From assembly GCA_037431425.1 (NCBI GenBank), contig GCA_037431425.1_4129.2: a DNA stretch of 64,000 nt. One strand, written 5' to 3'. The position numbers and the translations under genes were made by a program. Below, one piece after another: positions 15,453-54,357 of this stretch; within the stretch, counting starts at the first letter, position 1; each line of letters opens with the position of its first letter. The notes under the pieces are model-generated. The model did no database searches. It saw nothing but the letters and a program-made list of their open reading frames with translations, and was not told where the DNA came from. Origin of the DNA: a phage.

Positions 15453-15480
15453 AAAAAAGGAGCCATGTGGCTCCTTTTTT
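15451..15480. terminator. Bidirectional intrinsic terminator between convergent operons
   Basis: A8 - GGAGCCATGTGGCTCC palindrome - T6, between stops at 15452 (+) and 15479 (-). Confidence 0.65.
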
Positions 15481-15943
15481 AATATCTATATGGTAAACTA
15501 TTGACAAACTGTGTACCTTCACGTATACTTTCCCATAATGAGTAAAAATCTTTCATCAAGTTTGTGTTAAGCAATGTGTTTTTTGCACCAGGGTGTAATG
15601 GTTTAGGCCACGAGCCGATTTTAACCCATGCATATCCAGAGCTTTCATGATTTAATGTTGGTATAAACTCATTCTCAACTACGATAACAAATGAATAATA
15701 TTTAAATTTACCATTTTTTGTACAAAATACATCAAATGGTATAATATCAATAATATTTGGTATTGAGTCACCTAACTCTTCTTTAATTTCTCTCATAAGA
15801 CCTTGTAATGGTGTTTCGTCGCGTTCAAGCTTTCCACCAACAAATGCCCAATTGTTCGAATAGGTACTTCTTTCAGAACGTAAATTTAACATCATATGTC
15901 CGGTACTTTTTGATAAAAATATAGCACCAACAGCTTCATTCAT
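15479..15943 (-). CDS. Nudix hydrolase (154 aa)
   Basis: Nudix box GGKLERDETPLQGLMREIKEELG (G-x5-E-x7-REuxEExGu); RBS AAGGAGG 8 nt upstream. Confidence 0.7.
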   Translation of the reverse strand: MNEAVGAIFLSKSTGHMMLNLRSERSTYSNNWAFVGGKLERDETPLQGLMREIKEELGDSIPNIIDIIPFDVFCTKNGKFKYYSFVIVVENEFIPTLNHESSGYAWVKIGSWPKPLHPGAKNTLLNTNLMKDFYSLWESIREGTQFVNSLPYRY

Positions 15944-15955
15944 AACAACACCTCC

Positions 15956-17299
15956 TTATTTGTCAGTGAAAGTTATTTTCCAATATCCTTGACGATAAAC
16001 TGGCATAATACTTTTATGCCATTTAAATTTACCATTGTATCTATAATAACCATTATCTTCGTTGTTATAAATGTAATTACGCACAGTTGATGGGTCAATT
16101 AATTCAGCACCGTCGTTGGTAATTTTAAACAAATAATTCGAAGGAATTTCAGTTTCTTTGTAAATGATGTTATGTATACTGTTATTTACATAATATTGTT
16201 CAGGTATTGCGTCAAAAAGAACTGAGCTTTTTTGGACAAATCCATGAATAGTATAATCAACTGTATAGTTGCTACTATCAAGCTGAACGATAATTTTATT
16301 TGCATCTTCATCTTCACCATATGAAGAAATATAGCCTTTGAGTGGGTTATCTTCTTCGATTGATTGTTGAAATTTAATACCAACTTTTTTATCATCAAAA
16401 TTGGGTTCCAAATATTTAAGATATTTTTCCCATGAGTAGATACCACCATTAGGGGAAACATCGGACAATGACTGACTAACTAAAGTTAATTGATATGTAT
16501 CTGGCAAATTATATAAAGAATTAGTTATCTCTTCAACTTTAATACATAAGTTTTTTGGTGTAAAGACATCGGTGATGATATCAGAATAGTCAGACATTTC
16601 AATGTCAAATTCATCACGTGCACCTTTAATATTAGTAGTGATTTGTTGAATCAATTTTGGTTTTTCAACAATAGCTGGTAAAGAAAACCATATTGTTGTT
16701 TCAAATGTCAATACCATAATGTCTAAATCTTGGTCAGTTCCTTGTGGAAACCCACGAGTAGAGAACTGACAATCAATCAACTCTACATCACTTAGTGATG
16801 TCCAATCCAACGGGTTTTCAGATAACTGAAGTTGAATACTCGGTGAAAATAAAGTTGAAATTTGCTCAAATAATTCCATCTTTGTTTGTATTTGAGTTAC
16901 CCAGATATTCAAATCAAATGTAAATGTCCAAGGAACTGGGTTATGTCTTACGATTTTATATTGTGAATCGAGTTCTTTTTTGTATTCATTAATGGCAGGT
17001 GATGTGTTTGTACCCATAACTAATGTTTCATTCGCATTAGAACGTATACTTTTACGATCCAGCTTTAGTTGATTAACACTGATTGTCATAATTGGTGCAG
17101 ATGGAAGAACATTTTCACTATTACCATTGATAATTGCAGCAGCCATTCTTGATATATCCGCATAACGACATGGAACCTTTTTATATTTTGGGTTCCCATC
17201 AGCATCAACACCATTTTGTACTTGAAATTCACCAAAAACTCTGATAAGATGTTTCAGTACTCTGCGAAATTGGCCGTCATAATAATAATCTATTTTCAT
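15956..17299 (-). CDS. T4 gp15-like tail completion / sheath stabiliser protein (447 aa)
   Basis: N-terminus IDYYYDGQFRRVLKHLIRVFGEF...KYKKVPCRYADI...VLPSAPIMTISVNQL parallels T4 gp15 FGYFYNSSFRRYATLMGDLFSN...KFIRVPITYAS...ILPRINLHLVDF (from memory); 4-nt overlap with upstream gene. Confidence 0.5.
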   Translation of the reverse strand: MKIDYYYDGQFRRVLKHLIRVFGEFQVQNGVDADGNPKYKKVPCRYADISRMAAAIINGNSENVLPSAPIMTISVNQLKLDRKSIRSNANETLVMGTNTSPAINEYKKELDSQYKIVRHNPVPWTFTFDLNIWVTQIQTKMELFEQISTLFSPSIQLQLSENPLDWTSLSDVELIDCQFSTRGFPQGTDQDLDIMVLTFETTIWFSLPAIVEKPKLIQQITTNIKGARDEFDIEMSDYSDIITDVFTPKNLCIKVEEITNSLYNLPDTYQLTLVSQSLSDVSPNGGIYSWEKYLKYLEPNFDDKKVGIKFQQSIEEDNPLKGYISSYGEDEDANKIIVQLDSSNYTVDYTIHGFVQKSSVLFDAIPEQYYVNNSIHNIIYKETEIPSNYLFKITNDGAELIDPSTVRNYIYNNEDNGYYRYNGKFKWHKSIMPVYRQGYWKITFTDK

Positions 17300-18789
17300 T
17301 CTGTGTCCTTATGTATACGATAAGCTGTATTTGGTTTAACTGCGTCATGTAATGGAACTTTATTATCACTATTTACGAACTTAGTAAGTGCTAAATCTGC
17401 ACCTTCCCACGGTTTTCTACCACCGTAATCAAAAATAACCCATGAATTCTTAGTTGCATTGAATTCCCACAGTGTAACTGGTGTATAATCAGTACGGTAA
17501 AAGTAATCACCATCAACTGCATCAGTAGGGAACATGTTTCCTTCTGGAACTGTACCTCTTGCTGGTGGGATTTTAGGGCGATAATCCTGTTGTGCATCAA
17601 TATTTCCATATACACAACTTGATGTGAATGGGTCATTGACGTAAGTTACTTTTGGTTCGCCCCATTTACCATCATTGTACTGAAAAATGTGTGGTTCTTT
17701 ATAAAAAATACAAAAATCTTCAATATCTTTTGGTGGATTTTCACTGGTCGTGTATTCAACATCACAATTTAACCATTTTTTAACACTTTTATCGTACTGG
17801 TATAGTGTATACCCAGTTACATCTACATCATTCTCTTTAAAGAAGAAATCACCATCCATAGGTTTCTTAGGAAAAACGGTTCCACGCTTGACTTCCAGTG
17901 AAATCCATGTATCATTATCGTATTCTTTAAGTATTGGGTATGTTTTTTTCAAAAAATACATACCACTTGCAGGTTCTTCGGGGAAATCATATCCATTAAG
18001 CATATACTTTGACAAATCAACAGTATCACGACGGTCATCATACAAATGCTCGTTGGTATAATGAATATAAGGCACTTCATCATCAGCTTGCATAATGATA
18101 CGATTCATAATATCCATTTCATTACTATAGTTACTGTTATCAGATGTACCATCATCAGTGTTACCATTACCATTATTTGGATCATTTGGGTTATCAGGGT
18201 AATTGTTGTTTCCTAGTAAGTCGGAGTACTCAGGAGAGTCAGTCAATGGCTTTACTCGAAGTTTATAAATGTGATGTTGCCAAGTAACAGAGTAACCTTC
18301 TGCTGTACGAAACGCATCTTGGACCACATAGAAGCGATTCAGACCAGAATCTTTACCAAGAACATCATAATCACGTAAATTTGGTAGTTCAATTACATCA
18401 CCAGGCATGATTTTTCTACCCAATCGTTGCATCATGGTATTGTAGTGGATTGTAATGTCCATCGTATTGAAATTAAAGAACAAACCTGGAATTTTCAAGT
18501 CAGGTGTTGCTTCTTGAACTTGATAGACACAACTTAGTGTGATTGCTTCAAGATTATAGTTTCTATTTGGGGTGTCTCCAAAAATTAAATCACCAATACT
18601 TGACACAACCGATCCAGAAGATGTATAATCACCGCCATATGATAAGTCTTTGTTATCTGCAACTTGTTTTGGGCCGACATAAGCGTAAAGCCACATGTCA
18701 ACACCACCAATGTTGTATTGTTCAGCAATGGCAGAGTCAATGAACTTGTAATCATTGGTTCTACCTTTTTTCCACATTCTATATGTCAT
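17296..18789 (-). CDS. Hypothetical protein (497 aa), possibly a neck protein by position
   Basis: Start moved from track TTG at 18801 to ATG at 18789 (RBS GGAG 6 nt upstream); sits upstream of the gp15-like gene as gp13/14 do in T4. Confidence 0.5.
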   Translation of the reverse strand: MTYRMWKKGRTNDYKFIDSAIAEQYNIGGVDMWLYAYVGPKQVADNKDLSYGGDYTSSGSVVSSIGDLIFGDTPNRNYNLEAITLSCVYQVQEATPDLKIPGLFFNFNTMDITIHYNTMMQRLGRKIMPGDVIELPNLRDYDVLGKDSGLNRFYVVQDAFRTAEGYSVTWQHHIYKLRVKPLTDSPEYSDLLGNNNYPDNPNDPNNGNGNTDDGTSDNSNYSNEMDIMNRIIMQADDEVPYIHYTNEHLYDDRRDTVDLSKYMLNGYDFPEEPASGMYFLKKTYPILKEYDNDTWISLEVKRGTVFPKKPMDGDFFFKENDVDVTGYTLYQYDKSVKKWLNCDVEYTTSENPPKDIEDFCIFYKEPHIFQYNDGKWGEPKVTYVNDPFTSSCVYGNIDAQQDYRPKIPPARGTVPEGNMFPTDAVDGDYFYRTDYTPVTLWEFNATKNSWVIFDYGGRKPWEGADLALTKFVNSDNKVPLHDAVKPNTAYRIHKDTE

Positions 18790-18831
18790 ATTTGTCTCCA
18801 AAATAATTCGGGTATATCTTTATTTACCATG

Positions 18832-18859
18832 TAGACAAACCATAAGAATGTGATATAAT
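18832..18859 (+). promoter_or_regulatory. Sigma70-like (early-type) promoter for the ClpA-like gene
   Basis: TAGACA (18832-18837) - 16 nt - TGaTATAAT (18851-18859), ~40 nt upstream of ATG at 18898. Confidence 0.5.
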
Positions 18860-18897
18860 GTTTGTTAATTAGAGTGACGTGAATCACAGGAGAATAC

Positions 18898-21186
18898 ATG
18901 AATCTTACTCAATTGTTCAAAAAAAGCGACGAACTAGCAACATCCCTAGGTCATACTTTCTTGACTATTGACCATGTGAGTGCTACAGTACTGACTATTG
19001 ATAGTATCAAGGGCGTGTTCGAAGAAATGAACATCGATGCTGACAAGTTGCATAGTCGCCTGATGAACTATCTTAAAAATACAACGGTTCCAAGTGCACC
19101 AAAAAGCACACTCGATGAAGATGCCAACCGCACTTCACTTCTGGTGAACCGTGTTGTACATGAGCTTTCGAAAAAATCAGTCATTGAACAACTAAAAAGT
19201 GATGATTTTTCGATTGATGCATATTTTGTTCTATTTGAATGTTTATCATTCCCAAACACTGCACTTGAAGCTGCTTTGAAAGAAGAAGGTGTTAGCTGTA
19301 CCGAAGCTGCTCGTGCACTACAGAAACACGTTGAGGCACTGGAAAAGGGTATCAACCTTCAAAGTATCAATGACGAACCTACTGGAGATAAAAAAGTGGC
19401 TCAACCACAGCAATCATCTAAACAAAAAGGTTTAGCAGACTATACAACAAACCTAACGGCCCTTGCAAAAGAAGGCAAACTAGACCCAATGATTGGTCGC
19501 CAAAAAGAGCTATCTACATTGATTGAGACTCTTGCTCGCAAAACCAAAAAGAATGCCATCCTGACTGGTGAAGCTGGTGTTGGTAAAACACAAATCATCG
19601 ACGGTCTTGCACAAGCAATTGCTGATGGTAATGTACCAGAGCACTTAAAAGATGTTGAAATTCTTTCCCTAAATGTTGGTGCGTTGACTGCTGGGACTAA
19701 GTATCGTGGCGAATTTGAGGAACGTATCGATAATTTACTAAAAGAACTAAAGAAACGTGAAAACACAATTGTTTTCATTGATGAAATCCATATTATGGTC
19801 GGGGCAGGTTCTGCAAGCAACGGTTCAATGGACATGAGCAATATGCTTAAACCAGCACTATCACGTGGTGAGATTCGTGTAATTGGTGCAACAACATACG
19901 AAGAATATCGTAAAAACATCGAGAAAGATAGTGCATTGACTCGTCGTTTTATGAAAATTGATGTTGTTGAACCGTCAATCGATGAAACTCGTGAAATTGT
20001 GAACGGTCTTAAATCAACTTATGAAAAATTCCATAACGTTGAGTTTACAAAAGATGCAATGGATGCAGTAATTTCTCTCAGTGAGAAGTTCTTGAAAAAT
20101 AAACACTTCCCAGATAAAGCAATTGACCTAATGGATGCTGCTGCTGCGAAAGTGCGTTCACGTGATAATAATAGTAAGCTAATTACAGAGAATTTGATTC
20201 AAGAAGTTGTTGCTGGTATTGCTAACTTGGATATCAACGTGGTTGCATGTACAGAAAGTGAACGTATGCGTAATCTACCAGATGCACTACGTTCACGTGT
20301 TTACGGACAAGAAGAAGCGATTCAAAAATTGGTTGATAATGTAATGGTTGCTCGTGCTGGTCTACGTGATAAGTCGAGTGTTCAAGGTGCTTTTATGTTT
20401 GTTGGTCCGTCAGGTACTGGCAAAACAGAAATTACAAAAGCATTAGCTGAAGCAACGGGTTCAGAGCTTGTTCGTTTTGATATGTCTGAGTTTTCGCAAG
20501 AACATACTGTTTCAAAACTAATTGGTTCCCCTCCAGGTTATGTTGGTCACGATTCTGGTAATGGTTTGCTATTGGATAAGATTGAGCAGTTTCCTAATGC
20601 CATTCTACTACTCGATGAAATCGAGAAAGCAGATCGTAAAGTACTACTAACCTTCCTACAGGTTCTGGACGAAGGACGTTTGACTGGATCACAAGGTAAA
20701 ACTGTTTACTTCAATAACGTAACTGTTATTATGACAACCAACCTTGGTGCGGCTGATTCAACAAAGCGTAGTATTGGGATGAGTGGTAGTGAAAGTGCAC
20801 AAGACAAGGCAATTAAAGCATTCTTACCACCAGAATTCATTAACCGTATTGACAGTATTGTTACGTTTAATGAACTAAGTAGTGAAGCTATTGACAGTAT
20901 CATTGATAAATTCATGGGAAGTTTGAATGAACAAGTTAAACATCGCAACGTAAAAGTTTCACTAACGAAAGCTGCACGTGGATGGCTTGCAAAAAATGGT
21001 GTTCAGGTAGGTATGGGTGCACGACCAATGAAACGTACAATTGAACAAAACATTCGCGTACCACTAGCGAAGGAAATGTTGTGTGGTTCACTGGTAAATG
21101 GTGGTAACATTACATTTGATGTTATCAATGACAAACTTGGTATTAAACCAAAACGTACTAAAGCAGTTGAAAAAACACTAGCTTAA
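18898..21186 (+). CDS. clpA: ClpA-type AAA+ ATPase / unfoldase (762 aa)
   Basis: Clp N-domain; D1 GEAGVGKTQI, FIDEIH, ALSRGEIRVIGATT, PDKAIDL; no ClpB middle domain; D2 FMFVGPSGTGKTEITKALAE, LLLDEIEKA, MGARPM; loop KRSIGM aligns with E. coli ClpA ClpP-docking IGL. Confidence 0.85.
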   Translation: MNLTQLFKKSDELATSLGHTFLTIDHVSATVLTIDSIKGVFEEMNIDADKLHSRLMNYLKNTTVPSAPKSTLDEDANRTSLLVNRVVHELSKKSVIEQLKSDDFSIDAYFVLFECLSFPNTALEAALKEEGVSCTEAARALQKHVEALEKGINLQSINDEPTGDKKVAQPQQSSKQKGLADYTTNLTALAKEGKLDPMIGRQKELSTLIETLARKTKKNAILTGEAGVGKTQIIDGLAQAIADGNVPEHLKDVEILSLNVGALTAGTKYRGEFEERIDNLLKELKKRENTIVFIDEIHIMVGAGSASNGSMDMSNMLKPALSRGEIRVIGATTYEEYRKNIEKDSALTRRFMKIDVVEPSIDETREIVNGLKSTYEKFHNVEFTKDAMDAVISLSEKFLKNKHFPDKAIDLMDAAAAKVRSRDNNSKLITENLIQEVVAGIANLDINVVACTESERMRNLPDALRSRVYGQEEAIQKLVDNVMVARAGLRDKSSVQGAFMFVGPSGTGKTEITKALAEATGSELVRFDMSEFSQEHTVSKLIGSPPGYVGHDSGNGLLLDKIEQFPNAILLLDEIEKADRKVLLTFLQVLDEGRLTGSQGKTVYFNNVTVIMTTNLGAADSTKRSIGMSGSESAQDKAIKAFLPPEFINRIDSIVTFNELSSEAIDSIIDKFMGSLNEQVKHRNVKVSLTKAARGWLAKNGVQVGMGARPMKRTIEQNIRVPLAKEMLCGSLVNGGNITFDVINDKLGIKPKRTKAVEKTLA

Positions 21187-21191
21187 AAAAC

Positions 21192-21220
21192 AAAAGGAGA
21201 GCATTTTGCTCTCCTTTTTA
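21192..21220. terminator. Bidirectional intrinsic terminator between clpA-like gene and the giant ORF
   Basis: 9-bp stem AAGGAGAGC (21194-21202) / GCTCTCCTT (21208-21216), loop ATTTT, A-run upstream, T-run downstream. Confidence 0.65.
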
Positions 21221-24200
21221 TTACTTAACTATTAATATTTTTTGAATATCATTACCACGAACTCGTAGACTGTTAGTATACACAGAAAGGTCTATTGTAT
21301 AACTATTTTGAGTATAACGTTTAAACTTATCATAACCGCCCAAATTAATTCCGTTGAAAGAATATGTAGTATCATGTTTGAAATCGTGTTCTGCACTGTA
21401 CATTACTCCACGGAGTAAGTTGTTTGTATTTCTAACTTCAACTTTTTCATATCCAATCGATATAATGTCACTCTTGTTAGCAGCGGAGCCTGATAACACA
21501 TTATTTCTAACATTATAATGGCTTACGGAAAGAGGTTGTGCTACATAAGTTGTGTTTTCTTCACTAATGGTTGTTATGTTAGTGATGGTAGCGTCAGCCA
21601 CATCAATATACATACTATCAACCATTGGATATTCATACACCCACACACCTTCATTATTTTTTGTCGGTTTGATATCTTTCGCATCATATTCAATCACGTT
21701 AATTTCTAAACAATCCGGCATTTTAGTTCTTACTAATTCACTAAGAACACCTTCCCCTGTAATTGGTAGATTATAACCGTTGTCTATAGTAATACCATCA
21801 TCATTAAATATTTCATTTGATACAACCCAAACATCAACATCATCAGGTGTTACTCCGTCATTATACTTACCACCATTTAAAGTAGTATCATAAAAAACGT
21901 CATAATTAATCACATCAATGGTGTAATTTCTGTTTTGCTCATATAATTTAATATCACCCTTGGTAAATTCTGGGTCAGCAAATGTTCTAACACGAACAAT
22001 GTTCAATGCAAGATGTTGTACTGGCTGATTCAGTTGTCCAAGTGTGATGTTATCATATCGAAGAACATTACCAGAACTATCAACCAACTCAATTGTTTCT
22101 TTTCCTGTAGTTCTTACAGTGAATAGAATAGGAGTTGTATTATGTTTGATATTAGACACACGTAATATGGTTTCCCATGTACGATTTTGATATCGAATAA
22201 AATCTTCACCATCCGGCGTGAAAATCATCACCTTATCACCATCAGATAAGTCACTGTCAACGATTTCAGCCTCAGTTAAGCTATTAATAGAACGTACACG
22301 ATAGAAATATTTTTCTTCAAACGGTGATGCCGTTTTATTAATATCATGTTCAATCTTAGCATATGAAGGAATACTAACAATTGCTTCTGTATGTTTATAT
22401 GGGTTGATAATTGCCATACCCTCGGTTTTATATCTGCTATTATTACGCAATTGCACTAGTGATTCAGTATCAAATCCATAACCATCAACAGTGAATCTAA
22501 TATGCCCAACTGCACGACTAGCTGGATTTATTTCAGATATATCGATAATATAAGGATCAACTTCGTCATCTTTAACTTCCCATTTGATAGCTGAAGTTTG
22601 TGATTCTAATGCAAGGTTGTCAAATGCATTCATATCATTGAAGAACTTAGCTTCAGCAATACTATCAATTATATATTGATAATCCGAATACATAGGGTTA
22701 TTTTGATCTTGTGGTAAATCATCTAGATTTATTTCAGCAAGTTTAATCATTTCACCATTAGTAATGAAATAATCTTCCATGAAATCATCAATACTTTTAT
22801 CATCTGGTATACTTTGGTATTCACCATTGATATTTAAGTAGACATGTTTTCTTGGCATCATAGTAATAGCATAGATATCAATAGGTGTTTTTGAAAGAAT
22901 TTCTTCTGCTTTTTCATACATATCAGTAGAGTCTTTATCAAACAACCCTCTCATGGCTGCCAGTACATGGACCGCATCGGAATAGAAACGTGTATCACCA
23001 CCAATTTCATCATAACGATAAACATATACACCGTATTCAACTTCAAGTTTCACTTTAATATCATGTTCAGATGCATCTGGATATTTTTCTGTAATAAAAG
23101 AAATATATTTTTCATATAATTCTTTACTTATTTCAAAATATCCATAGTTATAATCATTACTTGAAGAAAAACCTAATGGTAGTCTAGTACTTGGGTTATC
23201 ATTATAAACCAAACCACTAAATCCACAGCCAACCTCATCATGAATCTTATCATCACTGATATCTTTATAAAGTTTCAAACGGTTTGCTAATGTATTGTAC
23301 TGAACATAGTGTCGAAGGTCAGTAAACATTTCATTATGCGTTGATTCGTTATAAATGCGTTCAAGTGTAGCAGTAAATTCATCAGTTGCTTCTAAATCAT
23401 CAGCATGTTCTTTATACCACTGGTTTACACCATTTGCAGTTCCTAGTGTTACATCTAATTCTGGATAGTACGTTTGTAATAGATACGCATTAACCAAGTC
23501 AAATGATTGTTCATTATACACAGGGTAAGAATATATATAACGTTGTAATTCATAGGTATTAACAGAATCTTTTTCATTTGATTGATACTTATTATTAACA
23601 CTAATCAACTCATTAATGTTTGCCAAATCTTTATTCGGTTTACATTGAATATTATCATAATGCATAATAATATCAATTTCTTGAAATCTTCTATTTGGTG
23701 CAATAAAATCACTAGGCAGAGAACCTACTTTCTCCCATTTTTTAGTGGTTTCATTATATTGAGCGTACTCATAATCCCAAATATCCTTTTCAGTTTTAAC
23801 CCACGAACCATCAACAAAAATATACCCATTAGGATCTAAATCATTACAAAGACCTTTGATTAAGTCATCATCAGACGTTTTTTGTTCTATCTGTGAACGG
23901 ATTTTTGTACGATATGGTTTCACCTCTTCAAAGTACTCAACAATTTGGTTAATCAAATTATCATTTGAATAGTTTTGTACCAAAGATTGTTCCAAACCAA
24001 CAATATAGATATAGGATGTTTTAAATACCCAATCAACAACACCCTGTTCTACGTGTACATATTTGACCATATCAAAAACAATTTCACTTTGGTGTAAATC
24101 GAAAGAATTTTTTAGCAAAGCAAGTGCTTTTCTAATATTAATTTCACGATTACTAAGTGAACCGTCCTCATTATGAACATTATAATCTACATAAAACAAA

Positions 24201-27200
24201 TCGTTAAGCTCAATAGTACTACGTTGTCGCCCAATAGCTTTCCAATAAATTGAATCACGTGATTGAGATTTGATATATAAAGTCCAAATGTTTTCACTAT
24301 CTGTGACTCTAATTATATCACCAACTTGATAGTTTTTAGCATTTGCTTCTTCTAAACTTATCTCTTGGATGTAAGCAGTTTTGCTATCATACCCAACATC
24401 ATACCAATCTGCATAAGACCAGTATTGAGTCATATCTAATGATGTTCCGAGTGATTCAACATAATCCGATTGCTTAATCATTTTATGTTGTCCTTCACCT
24501 TTATTTTCTAAAGTTATAGTAACAACACTACCTGCATTAGCTGGACTATTCATTAACTGAATATATCCGTTTTCATCGAAGTGAATAAAATAAACAGCAC
24601 TAGTTGATAATGGAGTCGGTAGATAACCGCTAGAACTTAAAATAACAGCGTCATTTTCTTTAAATTTATCCTTTTCAACTGCAATTACAAGTTCATTATT
24701 ATAAGTTAATACACGGAACGAAACCTCATTAGGGTTAACTTCTGTAGTTTTAACATTAAACACATCTTCCATAACAACACTATTAGTAGTTATGTTTTGT
24801 GATCTATAATAATTATTTGCACTTTCTACAAAGTTTCTACGTGCCTCTATTATATTCTGGAACCAAGTTTTATTAGAGCCTAAACCAGTGCCAACTTCTG
24901 GATATAATAAATCTACAACCTTACCTGACTTCGTAGTTTCTTGACCAATTAGAGAGTTCCACATAGAGTCCCAAATTAGTGGGTTAAAATTGTAACTTTC
25001 ACCCTCTTTACAAAGTTGATATTGATCATGTTTAACAACTTCTGTATTGTCCATATAGTAAGAAATAGTCAAAACACTAGTATCATCATTAACTTCAAAC
25101 TGCATATTACTAAGAATAAAAGAGTTTTCATTAATTGGTGCGAACCAAGGAATGTTCAACTGTGATGGATCTTTAATAATACGTGCAATGTCAGTACATG
25201 ATTTTGTTCTGGTATGAATAGGTGGTACATAAATTGTATCACGTACCCAGAAATAGTATTTTGTTACATAACTGTCAGTGGAGCTATCATATTCCAAAAA
25301 TGTACTATAATTATCTTCAAGTGCTGTTCCACTTGGAAGATACATATTATTATTTTTGTTTTTCTTAGCAACATCTTTACAGTACTTATCCCAGTTATAT
25401 GGTTCTACTGGTGAACAAACCCATTCCAACACATCAATAGTACTATGTGGCAACAAACGACCCCAGTTGTAACGTTTATATTCATTGGTTGCGTCAATAT
25501 CAACATTTCCATCTGCATCATAAATGGCACGAGTATAATCCAAATAAAAAGCGGTGCTAGTGTTCCACCATACTTGACCAACTTTTTCAGCACCCCACGC
25601 CTGAACCAATTCGCCATTACTATTATATTGAGCAGGGTCGATTGGTGAAGTATATGTTACGTTTTGCATTGCTGCACCAGGAATAACACCATTAATTGGG
25701 TCATAAACATTTAGATATAATGCAGTAATGTTTGTACGTTCATCATATGTAGTTGGACGTTCAAACAAAGTACTTTGTGGTGCTTTAAAACTATATTTTT
25801 TATCAATATATGCTTGACGCTCTTCAGTACTCACAAAACGCGAAACATAACGATACAAACGAGGGCGTGTATCTGGGTCAGTAAATTCGATATTAATTGA
25901 AGTATCAAATGGAACCACCATAACTTTGGAATCATCCCCAGCAGTATAATATTGACTTTCTACTGTTAAAGTATCTGGCATAAAGTTAGTTTCGTCCACA
26001 AAATAATAGTAATCACCATCTTCAAGAGGGATATCATCAGATAGAGTTACTTTACAGAATTTCTCAGCGTAAACATCTGTGGTTTCGATTGGTGTAATAG
26101 AAACCATTTTAACATTAGTGTCAATTAATTCAAAAATGTTCCATAACCCATTTCCATCTTTGAACATCCATACTGATTCAGGATTTTCACCTTTACCATT
26201 GATATACAACATACGGTCATTGAATGCAGTACTGAAATCTTTCGTAGTATAAGATACTTCATCTAATGTAACTGGACCAATATCAGGCAGTTGGATGTGT
26301 TCACTTCTACCACTACGCATTGGGAAAGAGAATTTACCATTTGGACGAGTAATCCATTGTGGGTCTTTTCCTTGTTCACCAAAGAATACAATATTGTTTC
26401 CATTGCCATTTGATGTTGCATTTTCATCAAAAGACATCATTTGTGGCTGCTGCTTAAATTGGTCATTAATCAATTTAAATTGAAGGTTTTTCTTTCCATC
26501 GATGTTACCATATGTACCAACTTTAAACGCCCATTCTTGTAATGCTTTATATTCATCAGTATCATAGGATTTAGAAACACGAAGAACACGTTCTAAAACT
26601 TGGTTTGTACCTTTGTCATGAATAAATCCTTTATAGAAATCAACACGACTTACATCACTACTAATCATACGTTGTAGATAATCACGAGATTGATAACCAA
26701 TCAAATGGCTAGACAATTCTTGTAATTGTACATCGCTAACGGGATGTTCATTGTCATAGTAATGTTGAAAATCTGTTACTAGAGTTTCAAATGATGGTAT
26801 TGTACCAGATTCCAAAATAATAAAACCAGGTGCTTGTAATCTACCAGTCCATGAACCAGTAATGTACCCATACATTTTAATTAGTTCCTGGATAGAACCA
26901 TAAGTTGGTTGATAGATATAATCACCAAAAATAGTCTTATCATCAAATATAACAGCATGTTCATATGAACACAAACTTAAACGGATTAATGCAATACGCT
27001 TATTAGAATCGGTTGTTCTAACAGTGAATATATTACCAATACGTGAAGTTTCGATTTCATATTGACGAATACCTTGGTTATTATCATCAAGCAATGACCA
27101 CACACCACCATTATTTTGTGTAATAGACTGTACTGAACCAAAATCCGAACCAAACTTAGCATTTGCAGCACTTGGTGTACAAGAGATAAATTCGCCAGTT

Positions 27201-30200
27201 ACCAGAGGACTCTGACTCCATATCACAAAATCTTTAGCAATAGTGTGCCAATCTTGCTGAATACCATCTTGATTAACATCTTCGAAAATCCAGCCATGTT
27301 CTTTAAGATACTCACCATATCCACAAATAAAAGTGTATACTTCTTGATAACTATTGAAAATAGTCCCATATTCAATAGAAGCCTCAGACTTCCATTCATT
27401 ATAATGAACAATATTACGGTTTTCCAATTTAAGAGTTACTTTTCTTCCATTTTTTACTGGAAGTTTATATTTAAATTTCGCACCAACCAAATCATATCCA
27501 TCAATTTGATATGCACTACCATTCCATGTAATTTTGATGGCACTCATCTGTTCATCGCGAATGTTATTCGAACGCACCAGACCAATCGTTTGGTTTTCTT
27601 GTGAAATAAGACCAAATGATTTAGCGTTGAATGTTAATTGATCTGCTTTAGTAAAGCCACCAATTTTATGTCCCACATTTACGTAAGACGAACGTACAAC
27701 ATCTCCATATTTTGTAGTAATATTTTTATTTTGATACATCAAATAATCACTAACAAACATTTGATATCCAATTGTTCTTGTGTTATCTTCACCATGAACA
27801 GTTGTGTTTTTATCAAAATTCACACGATTGCGGGTATCCCCGTACAGAAATTGTTCACCAGTGGTGATAATTTCTTTCAAATTGTCATTACGGGTATCCC
27901 AATAATAGTTGGCAAATTGTGCAGGTTTAGCTTTATACAAAAGTAACATTTGGTCATATGCAAACAATGTGGTGTTCATATACGTAAATTCCATATCACC
28001 CATGTCGCCATACGCCCAAGGTTCTGCTCGGTGAACTAAAGATCCAGACACTAATCCTAAAACTTCAGGAGCAATATACTCAACCACACAAATATCTACA
28101 CCGGATGATGTTTTATTTCCAGTTTTAGTAATTTTAAATGGTTGTACACCAAATCTTTTATATTTGTCATACTGACCACGGCGGTCGCCATATAAAATTG
28201 TCCCAGTACTACTATCGCCGATTGTATCATTTACATCCCAAAGTCCACTAGGAACCAAATCACCTTGTTCATCAGTTACAAGTGCCTCATATACATAAAC
28301 TACATCACCATCACGTTCACCAACTTGGACAGCGGTTGGTTCATACTCTTGGTTCCACCAAGTAGGACGTTGTGTAAACCCAAACATTTCCCATGGATGT
28401 GTAGCAGGGCGATATGTACCATATTGATCAGTATAGATTGCACGCCATGAACCACGAGCAGGAATTTCAGTACTTTTACCATCAACAACATAATAGGTTC
28501 CAGTATAGTTCCATGTTCTCCAGTTATTAGGATCATAATCATGTGTGCTATTACTAATACCATTAGATGCAGTGAAGTTAATATAACCACGTAATAGAAG
28601 TGTTTGTTTTTCTTCTGCACTATATTCAGTTTTTGTAAAATATGGCGTAGGGAAAAGATCATCACTATTCAATACAGGGACATAATCAACATCTTTGAAT
28701 TTATTGTCAATACTATTGAAAATTCTATTTTCAAGTTCATATACAACATCATCCATTTTATCAACACCATTGATAACACGGTATGCTTTAGAAATAATAC
28801 CAGTATGGCTGATATTATAATAGCTAGGTTTACTACCAGCAGTTAGGAATGTTGCTTTCTCAGGAACGTATGCTTGTAGAATACCTAAAAACTGTGGAGT
28901 TGGTGGTATAAATGCACGAATAAGACCAGATGTACTACCCACATTGTCATAATAGAATGGGAATGAACTATCACGACCCATATTAATAGTTGCCAAAATA
29001 GAATCAACGATGTTAGCTGCACTATTTTGTAAAAAGTTAGTTGGGTTTTCATTGTACATTCTAAGCATTTGTGTATTAAATTTATTAATGAATCTGAAAT
29101 ATTCAGATTGCATAAACATAGTTGCTTCAAATAAATCAATATCTTCATTTGCAGTATGAGCCATCAATGGGAGCATAGAAGCTTCATTTTGAATAATTTT
29201 AGTTCCTACTCCATTATTCACTAATCCCTTAGCTAAACGTTCTTCATAATCGTTGAAGTCATCAGCATAACCACTAGTGATATTCTGTTGAATAATATCC
29301 TGAAAATGAAGAGTATAGTCTCCTTGATTAATATATATAATATTGGAGTTATATGGGTTATTTTGTAAGTTAATTGGAACTTCATATGCACCTAATTCTT
29401 TATCAGGTGTTACAGTACTGCTATAAGTTCTAATTTGAATAACAGAATCATCATCCAATTCAACACTGTTATCGATTGTGATACTTTGCACTTGACCTTT
29501 TAATACATTCTTGGTATATTTGGAGATATTAACACCATCAACAACAACTTCAATAATATCAGAGTCATTGTCTAAAACTTTTTGTGCCAATTCAAAAGTA
29601 TGGTCATATTTTAAAACCTGAATACCATCACCACTAATTTGATGCCAGTCCAAATATGTTTCACGTTCAGCTTTATAGTACTGATATGTTTTATCAACTT
29701 CGATGACATATGCATACATACCCTCGACTGGTTCTTTAAACAGTTCCATATCATAAACAGAACTAAAGACTCGATACATATCAGTACGTTTGACTTGAGG
29801 TGTCTGTTTTACAAATTGTTTAGAGAATTCTTTTGAACGCACCCAATCAGTTTGAAGATTCATTTTATTATTTTCATCAATGATGTTATAATAATACAAA
29901 CCACCGATTTCAACTTCAACACCAAGATGGTCATATGTATAACGTTGTGATTGTAAAAAGTTTTCATAAGTGTAATAGTTATAATCACCAAGTTCAATGT
30001 TATACCCATATACACTATCAGCCGCGTAGTTATAGTTTATTTTAAATCCAAATAATGGTGAACCTTTAAATGTACTGGATGGGTACGTGGTGCTGTTATC
30101 TAGTTTGATTCCATTACGATCATAAAGTTGGAATTGAGGAAAGACGTTAACACTTGGCTTCGCCTGTGCACGAACCCATAATGTTCCATTCCAATACATA

Positions 30201-53733: not shown

Positions 53734-54357
53734 ATGAGTAGTATGATTCGTGAATGGTCTTCATTCAATGATTCTAAAGTTGTTTTGGAACATCGTGATA
53801 ATGGATTTGGTGGGCGTGATTGCTATCTTCGTGGCATTGCTATTCAAGCTGACCAACGAAATTTGAACGAGAGAATTTACCCTTTATCTGAAATTACAAG
53901 GGCAGTAAATAACATGAACCAGCGTTTAGCTAAAGGTGAAAGCATTCTTGTTGAATGTGACCATCCAGAAACATTAACTATTAATCTGGACCGAGTAGCA
54001 GCAATGATTACTAAGGTTTGGATGGAAGGTGCTAATGGTATGGCAGAAATCAAATTACTTGATACTGCACATGGTCAAAATATCCGTAAAATGCTAGAGG
54101 CTGGTGTGAAACTTGGTGTAAGTTCTCGCGGTTCCGGTAACGTTGATTATAATGGAATAGTTTCTGATTTTGAAATTATCACTATTGATATTGTTGCTCA
54201 ACCTAGTGCTCCAGAAGCATACCCAACAGCGGTATTTGAATCTCTGATGAGTAAGTACGGATCACCTTGTAAAAGTTCTAAAAAAATCACTGAATCTAAA
54301 AAGGTAAATAACTTAGATTCTGAAATATACGATTTTTTCAAGAAATTAAAAGGTTAA
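53734..54357 (+). CDS. 21: Prohead protease, T4 gp21-like (207 aa)
   Basis: NLNERIYP, VECDHP, GVSSRGSG, IDIVAQPSAPEAYP parallel T4 gp21 NRNKRLYP, GELNHP, GVSSRGLG, VDAVWGPSAPDAWV; RBS AAAGGAG. Confidence 0.8.
   Translation: MSSMIREWSSFNDSKVVLEHRDNGFGGRDCYLRGIAIQADQRNLNERIYPLSEITRAVNNMNQRLAKGESILVECDHPETLTINLDRVAAMITKVWMEGANGMAEIKLLDTAHGQNIRKMLEAGVKLGVSSRGSGNVDYNGIVSDFEIITIDIVAQPSAPEAYPTAVFESLMSKYGSPCKSSKKITESKKVNNLDSEIYDFFKKLKG

Follow-up and report, generated by a model that had tools for sequence, protein, structure and literature searches.

The clpA-like gene considered here encodes a 762-residue unfoldase of the ClpA family, and our preferred reading, to which we assign a probability of roughly 0.6, is that its product serves as the unfoldase in a ClpA-ClpP(-ClpS) protease that is encoded by the phage and expressed before the late genes. 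The window, that is, the entire 64-kb stretch of DNA that was analyzed, derives from an Asteriusvirus jumbo coliphage that is 99.3% identical to ph0011, a 348-kb E. coli jumbo phage. Both a phage ClpP and a ClpS-like adaptor are encoded elsewhere in the genome, and their presence suggests that the protease is probably made by the phage rather than being simply hijacked from the host. The initial annotation of this DNA had proposed that the unfoldase commandeers host ClpP. Given the ClpP and the ClpS-like adaptor of the phage and the divergence of the docking surfaces, a simpler reading than this is now available.

The gene itself is already known. About 35 genomes in public databases have it annotated as ClpA, including those of 121Q, slurp01, SP27, Sharanji, and GAP32, and it figures in two comparative papers. 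ClpA was described as highly conserved in most Rak2-like phages (Attai 2018, PMC6102473), and clpA is also mentioned in a survey of jumbo phages (Iyer 2021, PMC7824862). The suggestion that it was undescribed is thus incorrect. A literature search for functional work on phage-encoded ClpA, ClpS, ClpP, ClpX, or unfoldases returned nothing relevant, in keeping with the statement that no phage ClpA has been characterized. The interest of the system lies in the fact that strong purifying selection maintains three Clp genes, unlinked to one another, in a whole clade of 350-kb phages, and that the ClpA-ClpP contact surface in this clade differs from that of the host.

Overall architecture of the phage ClpA

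The features of the locus and of the putative partner genes are listed in Table 1.

Table 1 Coordinates of clpA, its signals and domains, and related genes. Positions refer to the window unless ph0011 is indicated.
Feature	Position	Strand	Remarks
sigma70-type promoter of clpA	18832..18859	+	TAGACA, 16-nt spacer, TG-extended -10 TATAAT; 11/12 matches
Ribosome-binding site	18888..18892	+	AGGAG, 5 nt 5' of ATG; read from the sequence
clpA-like gene, 762 aa	18898..21186	+	class-I Clp/Hsp100 AAA+ unfoldase without M-domain
N-domain, aa 1-150	18898..19347	+	divergent; 17% identity to E. coli ClpA N-domain
D1 AAA+ module, aa 181-440	19438..20217	+	Walker A/B, pore-loop, and Arg-finger motifs; 52% identity to E. 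coli D1
D1 Walker A	19567-19590	+	GEAGVGKT
D2 AAA+ module and D2-small domain, aa 441-745	20218..21132	+	45% identity to E. coli D2
D2 Walker A	20404-20427	+	GPSGTGKT
IGM tripeptide, aa 626-628	20773..20781	+	aligns with I617-G618-L619 of E. coli ClpA (IGL docking loop)
Bidirectional intrinsic terminator	21192..21218	.	perfectly paired stem of 12 bp, loop of 3 nt, a U-tract in each direction
T4 gp21-type head protease	53734-54357		gene separate from clpP
Phage ClpP	ph0011 84302-84997		PF00574, E 1.6e-41; single copy
ClpS-like protein	ph0011 259249-259794		family profile matches only ClpS in the PDB, E about 1e-7 (1.1e-7)

Judged by sequence comparison, the phage gene is a genuine, intact member of the ClpA family, as was originally proposed. 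The top-scoring family is TIGR02639 (ClpA), with 754.7 bits over residues 3 to 740, and in a comparison across families the ClpA score of 755 bits exceeds those of 631, 549, and 471-483 bits for the ClpC/ClpB/ClpV (TssH)/ClpG-K group. PHROG 4871 is matched over the full length. Among solved structures the best match is E. coli ClpA (E 2e-178), with residues 17-744 aligning to 20-737 in a single unbroken stretch, whereas the matches to ClpB and ClpC break into two, which shows that the phage protein has no M-domain. On the basis of domain continuity and family scores, identity as ClpB, ClpV, or ClpC was ruled out. E. coli ClpA (PDB 1KSF/1R6B, 6W1Z, 7UIV) displays the same order of N-domain, D1, and D2, likewise without an M-domain, over the 728-residue alignment, and its length of 758 residues is close to the 762 of the phage protein. 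ClpC, ClpB, ClpV (TssH), and ClpG-K share the class-I Hsp100 double-AAA+ fold, but they carry an M-domain insertion, and ClpB and ClpV have no ClpP-docking loop. Overall identity to E. coli ClpA is 40.5%. Note that the scores lie below the NCBIfam equivalog cutoffs (754.7 versus 993.15 for TIGR02639 and 646.6 versus 1350 for NF008263), and thus by the NCBI standard the phage protein is a divergent family member rather than a ClpA equivalog.

In addition to the Walker A motifs, D1 contains a Walker B motif (FIDEIH), a pore loop (KYRG, 268-271), and Arg fingers (RRF), and D2 contains a Walker B motif (LLDEIEKA), a pore loop (GYVG, 547-550), the Arg finger (NRID), and sensor-2 (GARPM). The Walker A/B and sensor motifs were described in the initial annotation as canonical, and the Walker A/B, sensor-1/2, and Arg-finger motifs of both AAA+ modules all align with the corresponding residues of E. 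coli ClpA, which shares the pore-loop motifs as well. The catalytic motifs are invariant in 117 phage-clade ClpA homologues. The resemblance noted earlier between the C-terminal region and bacterial ClpA is also evident, with MGARPM being the same in E. coli ClpA and GSLVNGG pairing with GSLVDGG. The N-domain is all-helical in the AlphaFold2 (AF2) model. Its match to Clp_N (PF02861) amounts to 23.6 bits, against a cutoff of 20.7, and covers residues 11-59 only; the PF02861 search gave no sequence match in this domain for the second Clp_N repeat.

The phage-encoded ClpP and ClpS-like proteins

As was noted at the outset, neither clpP nor clpS is located within the 64-kb window. The inspection of ph0011, which covered all but about 8 kb of that genome (148001-150773 and 343001-348217), revealed a clpP gene and a gene for a ClpS-like protein, both of which lie beyond the window, each about 86 kb from clpA and one per side. 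The phage ClpP is 34-35% identical to E. coli ClpP, its catalytic triad (S97/H122/D171) is intact, and it scores 156 bits against the model for bona fide ClpP versus 52 bits against that for head-maturation ClpP-like proteins. The ClpP proteins of enterobacterial Rak2-like phages carry a C-terminal extension.

The gene for the ClpS-like protein of Asteriusvirus was missed by tblastn with E. coli ClpS and was found via its GAP32 homologue. Its single-sequence score is under the Pfam cutoff (20.2 versus 23). The AF2 model is of low confidence (pLDDT 66), and of the three parts of the protein only the core domain was used for matching, for which the fold corresponds to that of E. coli ClpS with a probability of 1.00, a TM score of 0.66-0.72, and an rmsd of 1.9 Å over about 70 residues. 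The N-degron pocket of ClpS is, we assume, formed by N34, D35, D36, and H66, with M40 as the gatekeeper. At these positions the phage protein displays N34D, D36P, M40A (an invariant Ala), and H66N (an invariant Asn), with D35 kept. The canonical N-degron pocket is thus not present, and the specificity of the ClpS-like protein is therefore probably unlike the classical N-degron rule. At three further positions, to which we presume a role in ClpS, E79 is kept and the changes are E82I and K84F. A literature search for a paper giving the contact residues between ClpS and the ClpA N-domain found none. The ClpS-like gene would be co-transcribed with an IF-3 homologue and has a consensus sigma70 promoter. 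Across the Rak2-like phages, ClpA, ClpP, and the ClpS-like protein show near-identical genus counts and parallel divergence.

The docking interface and the proposed protease

The IGM tripeptide occupies the ClpP-docking position, as the initial annotation had it, and lies in a flexible loop formed by residues 624-630 (pLDDT <50 in the AF2 model). E. coli ClpA likewise has a flexible I-G-hydrophobic docking loop. The description of this loop as intact is only partly borne out. The hydrophobic-Gly-hydrophobic pattern is found where expected, but the third residue differs from the canonical [LIV]-G-[FL] form, and IGM was seen in just one of the 143 ClpA-family representatives from outside the phage clade. 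About 93% of these representatives have a tripeptide ending in F or L, versus about 17% of the phage clade. Within the clade the tripeptide varies by genus (IGM, IGV, LGM, or MNM), and MGM, IGG, IGA, and MSM occur in some members.

The pocket of E. coli ClpP consists of L23, L48, F49, A52, Y60, Y62, F82, I90, M92, F112, L114, and L189 (bioRxiv 10.1101/820209). Of these twelve residues only Y62 and M92 are kept in the phage ClpP, and four phage genera have the changes Y60T, F82S, F112L, and L114G in common. Where the ClpA of a phage retains x-G-F, its ClpP retains an aromatic residue at position 112. This covariation of tripeptide and pocket comes down to what is essentially a single evolutionary branch and does not represent repeated, independent changes. 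In E. coli ClpA a fourth residue, I620, also contacts the pocket (bioRxiv 10.1101/820209), and its position is occupied by a serine in the phage protein, such that IGL-I in the bacterial enzyme corresponds to IGM-S in that of the phage. From these alignments, both the docking tripeptide of ClpA and the pocket of the phage ClpP have diverged from those of the host.

In the scheme that we favor, host RNA polymerase with sigma70 would transcribe clpA as a single-gene unit ahead of the late structural genes. By homology with E. coli ClpAP, the protein would form hexamers, and the use of ATP by D1 and D2 would lead to the unfolding of proteins held by the KYR and GYVG pore loops. The IGM loops would dock, most likely, onto the phage's own ClpP tetradecamer with its remodeled pocket, and substrates would be threaded into ClpP and degraded. 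The ClpS-like protein probably binds to the N-domain of ClpA and biases the choice of substrate; possible substrates are host proteins, defense proteins, phage regulators, and misfolded giant phage proteins. From the present analysis we infer the ClpA-ClpP pairing, the formation of hexamers, the timing of expression, and the adaptor function of the ClpS-like protein. Several observations speak against a phage-made protease. The genes for ClpA, ClpP, and the ClpS-like protein are unlinked, and clpA does not adjoin clpS as it does in the bacterial clpS-clpA arrangement. Additionally, IGM is chemically near IGL. The occurrence of IGG, IGA, MSM, and MNM in some members of the clade could mean, instead of co-evolution, that constraint has been relaxed or that ClpA acts independently of ClpP. 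The single-branch nature of the covariation, the different promoter arrangements of clpP outside Asteriusvirus, the altered N-degron pocket and sub-cutoff Pfam score of the ClpS-like protein, and the ClpA scores below the equivalog cutoffs also count against this reading.

Because IGM is close to IGL, docking onto host ClpP must be weighed, although we regard it as unlikely. The phage ClpA would then compete with host ClpA and ClpX, and host proteolysis would be redirected to substrates of the phage's choice, for example antitoxins, defense proteins, or regulators. Of the docking residues, I617 and G618 are identical and L619M is conservative, host ClpP is abundant, and the predicted pre-late expression, dependent on host RNA polymerase, would suit a takeover function. 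All of the data presented here would be compatible with the use of both ClpP proteins, that of the host and that of the phage. On the other hand, the phage possesses its own catalytically intact ClpP, conserved together with ClpA across the clade, the I620 position is a serine, and the N-domain is just 17% identical to that of the host protein. Moreover, the tripeptide varies widely among the enterobacterial phages (IGM, IGV, LGM, MGM, MNM, IGA, IGG). The ClpP proteins of their Enterobacteriaceae hosts are assumed here to be near-identical, and against a pocket thus taken as constant such variation would be unexpected if host ClpP were the target. Should the phage ClpA work with host ClpP instead, the original idea of host takeover would stand.

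For the phage-made protease, a more far-reaching form may be put forward tentatively, although we consider it doubtful. The enterobacterial Rak2-like phages might carry a self-contained Clp protease orthogonal to that of the host, with docking and adaptor interfaces that have co-diverged and with insulation from host ClpX, ClpA, and ClpS. If so, it would allow the degradation, before the late phase, of host, defense, or phage proteins of the phage's choosing. A protease that is truly insulated would constitute a natural orthogonal AAA+ protease, through which one could study how a jumbo phage reshapes the proteome of the cell it infects, and from which synthetic biology could draw orthogonal parts for protein degradation.

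Transcription signals and genomic setting

The sole plus-strand gene between the minus-strand blocks at 15479-18801 and 21221-41777 is clpA, and the segment 18832..21220 is the exact span from its promoter to its terminator. The full promoter core, TGTAGACAAA-N9-TGTGATATAAT, begins at 18830. It precedes both clpA and the phage clpP and occurs at no other site in ~343 kb. The clpA promoter is conserved in 121Q, and equivalent extended -10 promoters are found 5' of clpA in KP13-7/Muenster, GAP32/CBB, SE_PL, Vibrio 2.275.O, PA5oct, and Atu_ph07; a sigma70-type promoter is kept at this location in seven lineages. Sharing of the promoter between clpA and clpP throughout the clade was ruled out, for it is true of Asteriusvirus, whereas the clpP genes of CBB and SE_PL lie inside operons. 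In Alcyoneusvirus, clpA and clpP each have their own promoter. The terminator (dG -16.8 kcal/mol, z -6.5) is common to clpA and the convergent gene for a 3327-aa protein, and equivalent hairpins occur 3' of clpA in Muenster, GAP32, CBB, Vibrio 2.275.O, and PA5oct. The arrangement recognized in the initial annotation, namely a lone plus-strand gene with its own sigma70-type promoter and bidirectional terminator, is accordingly correct, and both signals are conserved in relatives. The local GC content at clpA is slightly elevated, at 0.38 versus about 0.33-0.35.

Since the accessible part of the PA5oct RNA-seq paper (PMC7318152) does not report when the ClpA homologue, as an individual gene, is expressed, the predicted pre-late timing of clpA is based on the promoter prediction only. 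A literature search for Asteriusvirus transcriptomics returned nothing.

E. coli ClpA remodels RepA without ClpP, and the phage protein could similarly serve as a ClpP-independent chaperone or assembly factor that unfolds, disaggregates, or remodels giant phage structural proteins, such as the adjacent 3327-aa virion protein, in tail/baseplate assembly. To this possibility we give a low likelihood. The gene does lie within the tail/baseplate module. It adjoins the gene for a giant virion protein in Asteriusvirus, Alcyoneusvirus, Mimasvirus, and SE_PL and is one small gene away from that for a giant structural protein in PA5oct, and dnaJ adjoins clpA in PA5oct and Atu_ph07. The IGG and IGA tripeptides of some relatives could signify a weak need for ClpP, and a role in virion assembly has been proposed (Iyer 2021, PMC7824862). 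However, clpA is on the opposite strand and has a sigma70-type rather than the late ATAAATA-type promoter, and it is thus probably not co-expressed with its neighbors. Most relatives keep a hydrophobic docking-loop tripeptide, ClpP and the ClpS-like adaptor co-occur with ClpA throughout the clade, and the conserved position may just mirror a gene order that is frozen across the structural module. The virion data fit the phage-made protease: in CBB, ClpA is not a virion protein, and its neighbors 233, 234, 236, and 237 are; in PA5oct, ClpA is without an ESI-MS/MS virion tag, and the neighboring genes are tagged.

Conservation and gene history

The phage ClpA is 99.9% identical to that of ph0011 (WAE77172), 95% to those of 121Q/PBECO4, 75% to RaK2-like, 61% to GAP32/CBB, and 46% to Vibrio phage 2.275.O proteins. 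The Rak2-like ClpA proteins (121Q gp581, RaK2_00069, GAP32_229, CBB_235, SE_PL gp166; PHROG 4871) represent the same gene, with the same orientation, flanking genes, promoter type, and terminator; it is the docking tripeptide that varies by genus. Every Rak2-like genome examined carries clpA in the same slot beside the block of the gp15-like tail-sheath stabilizer. In Asteriusvirus, Alcyoneusvirus, and Mimasvirus the slot is bounded on its other side by the gene for a ~3300-aa virion protein. The flanking genes match on both sides in the enterobacterial genera and on the gp15/NUDIX side only in the Vibrio phage, where the downstream neighbor is another protein. In comparison with 121Q, the dN/dS ratio for clpA is 0.045, and the gene is under purifying selection. 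A neighbor-joining (NJ) tree places the phage ClpA in a clade apart from gammaproteobacterial ClpA; being distance-based and without support values, it is read only as indicating that the phage proteins are not nested within the latter.

As seen from these alignments and gene orders, clpA has long belonged to its phage clade, in which it is conserved, and is not a recent insert. That it might be a recently acquired host gene, the moron of the initial annotation, or a decaying passenger without a dedicated role is extremely improbable, and the comparative data already refute a recent insertion. A separate promoter and terminator, its orientation opposite to the neighbors, and its GC content (0.38 versus about 0.33-0.35) would fit, but the 40.5% identity to E. 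coli ClpA, the position apart from gammaproteobacterial ClpA in the NJ tree, the same genomic slot down to 46% identity, the dN/dS of 0.045 with all catalytic motifs invariant, and the lack of sporadic presence among the Rak2-like genomes examined all argue against it.

Several Clp components per genome are likewise encoded by Atu_ph07 (ClpA/ClpP/ClpS/ClpX/ClpB) and PA5oct (ClpA/ClpX/ClpS/ClpP/FtsH), and in other jumbo phages with Clp parts ClpA is likewise beside structural genes. In the NJ tree the ClpA proteins of Atu_ph07 and PA5oct fall outside the core Rak2-like clade, and, unlike the protein described here with its IGM, keep the canonical IGF; their ClpP proteins, 63% and 49% identical to that of E. 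coli, respectively, have largely canonical pockets. In the survey of jumbo phages, ClpP and ClpS were treated as alternatives in different phages (Iyer 2021, PMC7824862), whereas in the present case ClpA, ClpP, and a ClpS-like protein co-occur in one genome.

Identity of the gene product

The open reading frame at 18898..21186 on the plus strand encodes a protein of 762 amino acid residues. Its top NCBIfam model is ClpA (TIGR02639; 754.7 bits over residues 3-740), followed by ClpB (631 bits) and ClpV (549 bits), with every one of these scores lying below the curated equivalog cutoff. The Pfam domains are AAA (D1), AAA_lid_9, AAA_2 (D2), and ClpB_D2-small, and a Clp_N repeat was detected once the N-terminus was scanned by itself. 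The best PDB match is E. coli ClpA (E 2e-178), with an unbroken alignment of residues 17-744 to 20-737. ClpB and ClpC align in two pieces, and thus the M-domain is absent. As the full set of ATPase, arginine-finger, sensor, and pore-loop motifs is also present, the ClpA architecture without an M-domain proposed in the initial annotation is upheld.

The tripeptide IGM (residues 626-628), which had been assigned to the ClpP-docking loop, indeed aligns with I617-G618-L619 of E. coli ClpA. In the AlphaFold model (mean pLDDT 79), the closest structural matches of which are ClpC and ClpA chains, IGM lies in a low-confidence loop (624-630) flanked by a D2 strand and helix, a predicted placement as expected for the docking loop.

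Genomic setting and age of clpA

The 2.4-kb clpA region is 99.3% identical in nucleotide sequence to that of Escherichia phage OP557969 (hereafter ph0011; Asteriusvirus, 348 kb, the annotation of which was surveyed over ~340 kb) and ~88.7% identical to that of ~32 more jumbo coliphage and Salmonella phage genomes (121Q, PBECO4, slurp01, phAPEC6, SP27, Sharanji, and others). As had been noted initially, clpA is the sole plus-strand gene between two minus-strand structural blocks and has its own promoter and bidirectional terminator, and a scan of the window for clpP and clpS revealed neither.

Features of the clpA locus and of related genes. Positions refer to the window unless marked ph0011 (window position = ph0011 position - 151942); L011 and L005 are segments of ph0011.
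Feature	Position	Strand	Remarks
T4 gp15-like tail-sheath stabiliser	15956-17299	-	PF16724, E 1e-20
497-aa protein	17296-18789	-	no Pfam match; CBB homologue CBB_234 in virion
clpA promoter	18832-18859	+	TAGACA-16-(TG)TATAAT, sigma70-type
clpA ribosome-binding site			AGGAG
Terminator	21192-21218	both	perfect 12-bp hairpin, U-tracts each side, dG -16.8 kcal/mol, z -6.5
3327-aa ORF	21221-31204	-	convergent with clpA; homologue CBB_236 a virion protein by mass spectrometry
T4 gp21-type prohead protease	53734-54357	+	Peptidase_S77, E 1e-20
Phage clpP	ph0011 84302-84997 (L011:35302-35997)		outside window; catalytic triad intact; ~86 kb from clpA
IF-3 homologue and ClpS-like gene	ph0011 258732-259794 (L005:3733-4795)		outside window; apparent single operon, TTGACA-17-TATAAT promoter

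The start of the 497-aa gene is the annotated ATG at 18789; a mechanical ORF list runs on to a TTG at 18801. Upstream of this divergent structural gene, the minus strand carries GTAAATAAAG (18800-18830), with one mismatch to the late-type ATAAATA motif, and in phages GAP32 and CBB an exact ATAAATA occupies the equivalent spot. Given this motif opposite the clpA promoter, the intergenic region appears to hold back-to-back promoters of two different classes.

The slot and orientation of clpA are the same in ph0011, Klebsiella phages Muenster and KP13-7 (Alcyoneusvirus; 75% ClpA amino acid identity), Salmonella phage SE_PL (69%), and Cronobacter phage GAP32 and Pectobacterium phage CBB (Mimasvirus; 61%). 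One flank comprises the ~497-aa virion protein, the gp15-like stabiliser (PF16724), and a NUDIX gene, the latter two confirmed in ph0011, Muenster, GAP32, CBB, and the Vibrio phage discussed below (the short KP13-7 and SE_PL flanks reach only the ~497-aa gene). The other comprises a ~3300-aa virion protein and then a baseplate wedge gene, the giant ORF adjoining clpA in Asteriusvirus, Alcyoneusvirus, Mimasvirus, and SE_PL. Vibrio phage 2.275.O (ClpA 46%) has the orientation and the gp15/NUDIX flank in common; downstream, the place of the giant protein is taken by a 604-aa parallel beta-helix protein. In PA5oct (42%) and Atu_ph07 (38%) the order is dnaJ, clpA, structural genes, with dnaJ directly upstream.

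A distance tree of 153 ClpA sequences, calculated without support values, places the enterobacterial Rak2-like and Vibrio phage proteins in a group of their own, far from the E. coli/gammaproteobacterial group, and PA5oct and Atu_ph07 elsewhere. Comparison of the window with 121Q gave dS 0.60 and dN 0.027 (dN/dS 0.045). By these comparisons clpA is an old gene, inherited vertically in its phage clade. The initial annotation had regarded it as a moron; the slot shared across Rak2-like genera, the dN/dS value, and an identity to E. coli ClpA of only 40.5% rule out both recent acquisition as a moron and a passenger gene in decay.

A phage ClpP and a ClpS-like protein

A search of the rest of the genome, as proposed initially, was productive: a local tblastn of ph0011 located exactly one gene each for ClpA-like, ClpP-like, and ClpS-like proteins. 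The ClpP matches PF00574 with E 1.6e-41 and PDB ClpP entries with E 1e-31 to 4e-36, and scores 156 bits with the true ClpP model versus 52 bits with a ClpP-related head-maturation model. With its triad S97/H122/D171, it is, as judged from sequence, a genuine ClpP. Several GenBank records label it a head-maturation protease, an assignment that was rejected given that the gp21-type Peptidase_S77 is a separate gene. In four enterobacterial Rak2-like genera the protein has a conserved C-terminal extension of 22-25 residues (...KRRGGVEEWV) past the C-terminal strand of the pocket.

The ClpS-like gene likewise lies ~86 kb from clpA in ph0011, and its pairing with IF-3 recurs in GAP32. The single-sequence score of the 181-residue protein falls slightly under the Pfam cutoff; a profile from 13 relatives had ClpS chains as its sole PDB matches (E 1.1e-7, positions 63-139). 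The predicted model superimposes on E. coli ClpS with TM 0.66-0.72 and an rmsd of 1.9 Å over ~70 residues. The protein consists of an extra N-terminal ~65 residues, the ClpS core, and a C-terminal helical part of ~40 residues. The positions that we take to be pocket residues, including the presumed gatekeeper M40, are non-canonical: D36P, an invariant Ala at M40, and an invariant Asn at H66.

Phage records with ClpA/ClpP/ClpS-like matches (tblastn) are near-equal in number for Escherichia (33/34/34), Klebsiella (11/10/10), and Erwinia (8/8/8), and the three proteins diverge in parallel. The best-supported reading, to which we assign a probability of roughly 0.6, is that ClpA and ClpP form a phage-encoded protease, served by a ClpS-like adaptor and produced ahead of late gene expression. 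By homology to E. coli ClpAP, ClpA would unfold a substrate and dock on ClpP, where the substrate would be degraded.

The docking interface

The tripeptide was tallied in 143 ClpA-family representatives from outside the phage clade: ~90% have IGF, LGF, VGF, MGF, PGF, or IGL, ~93% have F or L as the last residue, and IGM occurs once. The 111 phage-clade homologues display MGM, IGM, IGV, IGA, LGM, LGL, MSM, IGG, MNM, and others, with a final F or L in ~17%. Some metagenomic and SE_PL-like homologues have IGG, IGA, MSM, or MNM, and by the canonical rule such ClpAs should be poor ClpP binders.

In the cryo-EM structure of E. coli ClpAP, ClpA residues I617, G618, L619, and I620 are received by a ClpP pocket formed by L23, L48, F49, A52, Y60, Y62, F82, I90, M92, F112, L114, and L189 (bioRxiv 10.1101/820209). 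Only Y62 and M92 are unchanged in the phage ClpP. The changes Y60T, F82S/N/C, F112L, and L114G are common to four genera, and in ph0011 this ClpA/ClpX docking pocket has Y60T, F82S, F112L, L114G, and A52S.

ClpA tripeptides and the corresponding ClpP pocket residues.
Source	ClpA	ClpP 60/82/112/114
E. coli	IGL	Y F F L
Atu_ph07	IGF	Y F Y L
PA5oct-like	IGF	S Y Y S
XaC1	VGF	T M F T
ph0011	IGM	T S L G
KP13-7	IGV	T S L G
CBB	LGM	T N L G
SE_PL	MNM	T C L G

The phage loop and pocket thus may have co-diverged, a pattern that is suggestive rather than statistical evidence because it covers approximately one evolutionary branch. That the phage Clp protease is insulated from, and orthogonal to, that of the host is a tentative extension. 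The initial annotation had instead proposed that phage ClpA hijacks host ClpP. The closeness of IGM to IGL would allow this, but it is less economical for a phage with its own ClpP, and the tripeptide varies among phages whose hosts presumably have near-identical ClpPs; we consider it unlikely.

Promoters and virion data

The core TGTAGACAAA-N9-TGTGATATAAT is identical in the clpA (18830-18859) and clpP (ph0011 84238-84267, L011:35238-35267) promoters; no other TAGACA/extended -10 site occurs in ~343 kb of ph0011. Like clpA, ph0011 clpP is a single-gene unit, closed by its own terminator (L011:36009-36030); in CBB and SE_PL it lies within an operon. The promoter of the infC-like/clpS-like pair matches the consensus at 12/12 positions. 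The clpA promoter is retained in 121Q, and sigma70-type promoters with an extended -10 precede clpA in KP13-7/Muenster (TTGACA-17-TGATATAAT), SE_PL, the Vibrio phage, PA5oct, and Atu_ph07. GAP32/CBB have TGTGCTATAAT as the -10, and their -35, TGGAACG, is similar to TGAAACG of the "divergent RpoD-like" class; in the CBB paper this class was linked to DNA-synthesis genes, and structural genes have ATAAATA. Together, these promoters support probable expression of clpA, clpP, and the infC-like/clpS-like genes by host RNA polymerase before the late genes, and putative co-regulation of clpA and clpP in Asteriusvirus.

The CBB virion proteome contained CBB_233, 234, 236, and 237 but not CBB_235 (ClpA), and a single peptide of its ClpP, CBB_104 (PMC5259590). 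The PA5oct record carries an ESI-MS/MS tag on neighbors of the ClpA homologue and none on the homologue itself. From these data, ClpA is not part of the virion. A ClpP-independent role as an assembly chaperone would accord with the conserved position beside the giant virion protein gene and with the adjacent dnaJ in distant relatives; the non-late promoter and the co-inheritance of ClpP and ClpS with ClpA make it improbable.

Relation to previous work

Phage clpA is already known; of the initial annotation, the label "undescribed" and the moron fell, while the identity as ClpA stood. Attai et al. 2018 (PMC6102473) reported ClpX, ClpA, ClpB, ClpP, and ClpS in Atu_ph07, with ClpA highly conserved in most Rak2-like phages. 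Iyer et al. 2021 (PMC7824862) considered that ClpA and ClpX may act as translocases or help in assembly, and treated ClpP and ClpS as alternative host-directed factors of patchy distribution. PHROGs holds full-length families for ClpA (phrog_4871) and the ClpS-like protein (phrog_15940). A literature search of incomplete coverage yielded no experimental work on phage ClpA, nor did we find stated the joint presence of all three Clp parts across the enterobacterial Rak2-like clade, the clpA/clpP shared promoter in Asteriusvirus, or the diverged docking interface; these three are offered as hypotheses for the bench.

Outside the window, ph0011 encodes more proteostasis-related proteins (79377-79604, 218433-218732, and 269976-270302), namely a 75-aa DnaJ-type zinc-finger (CXXCXGXG) protein and two GroES-like co-chaperonins.
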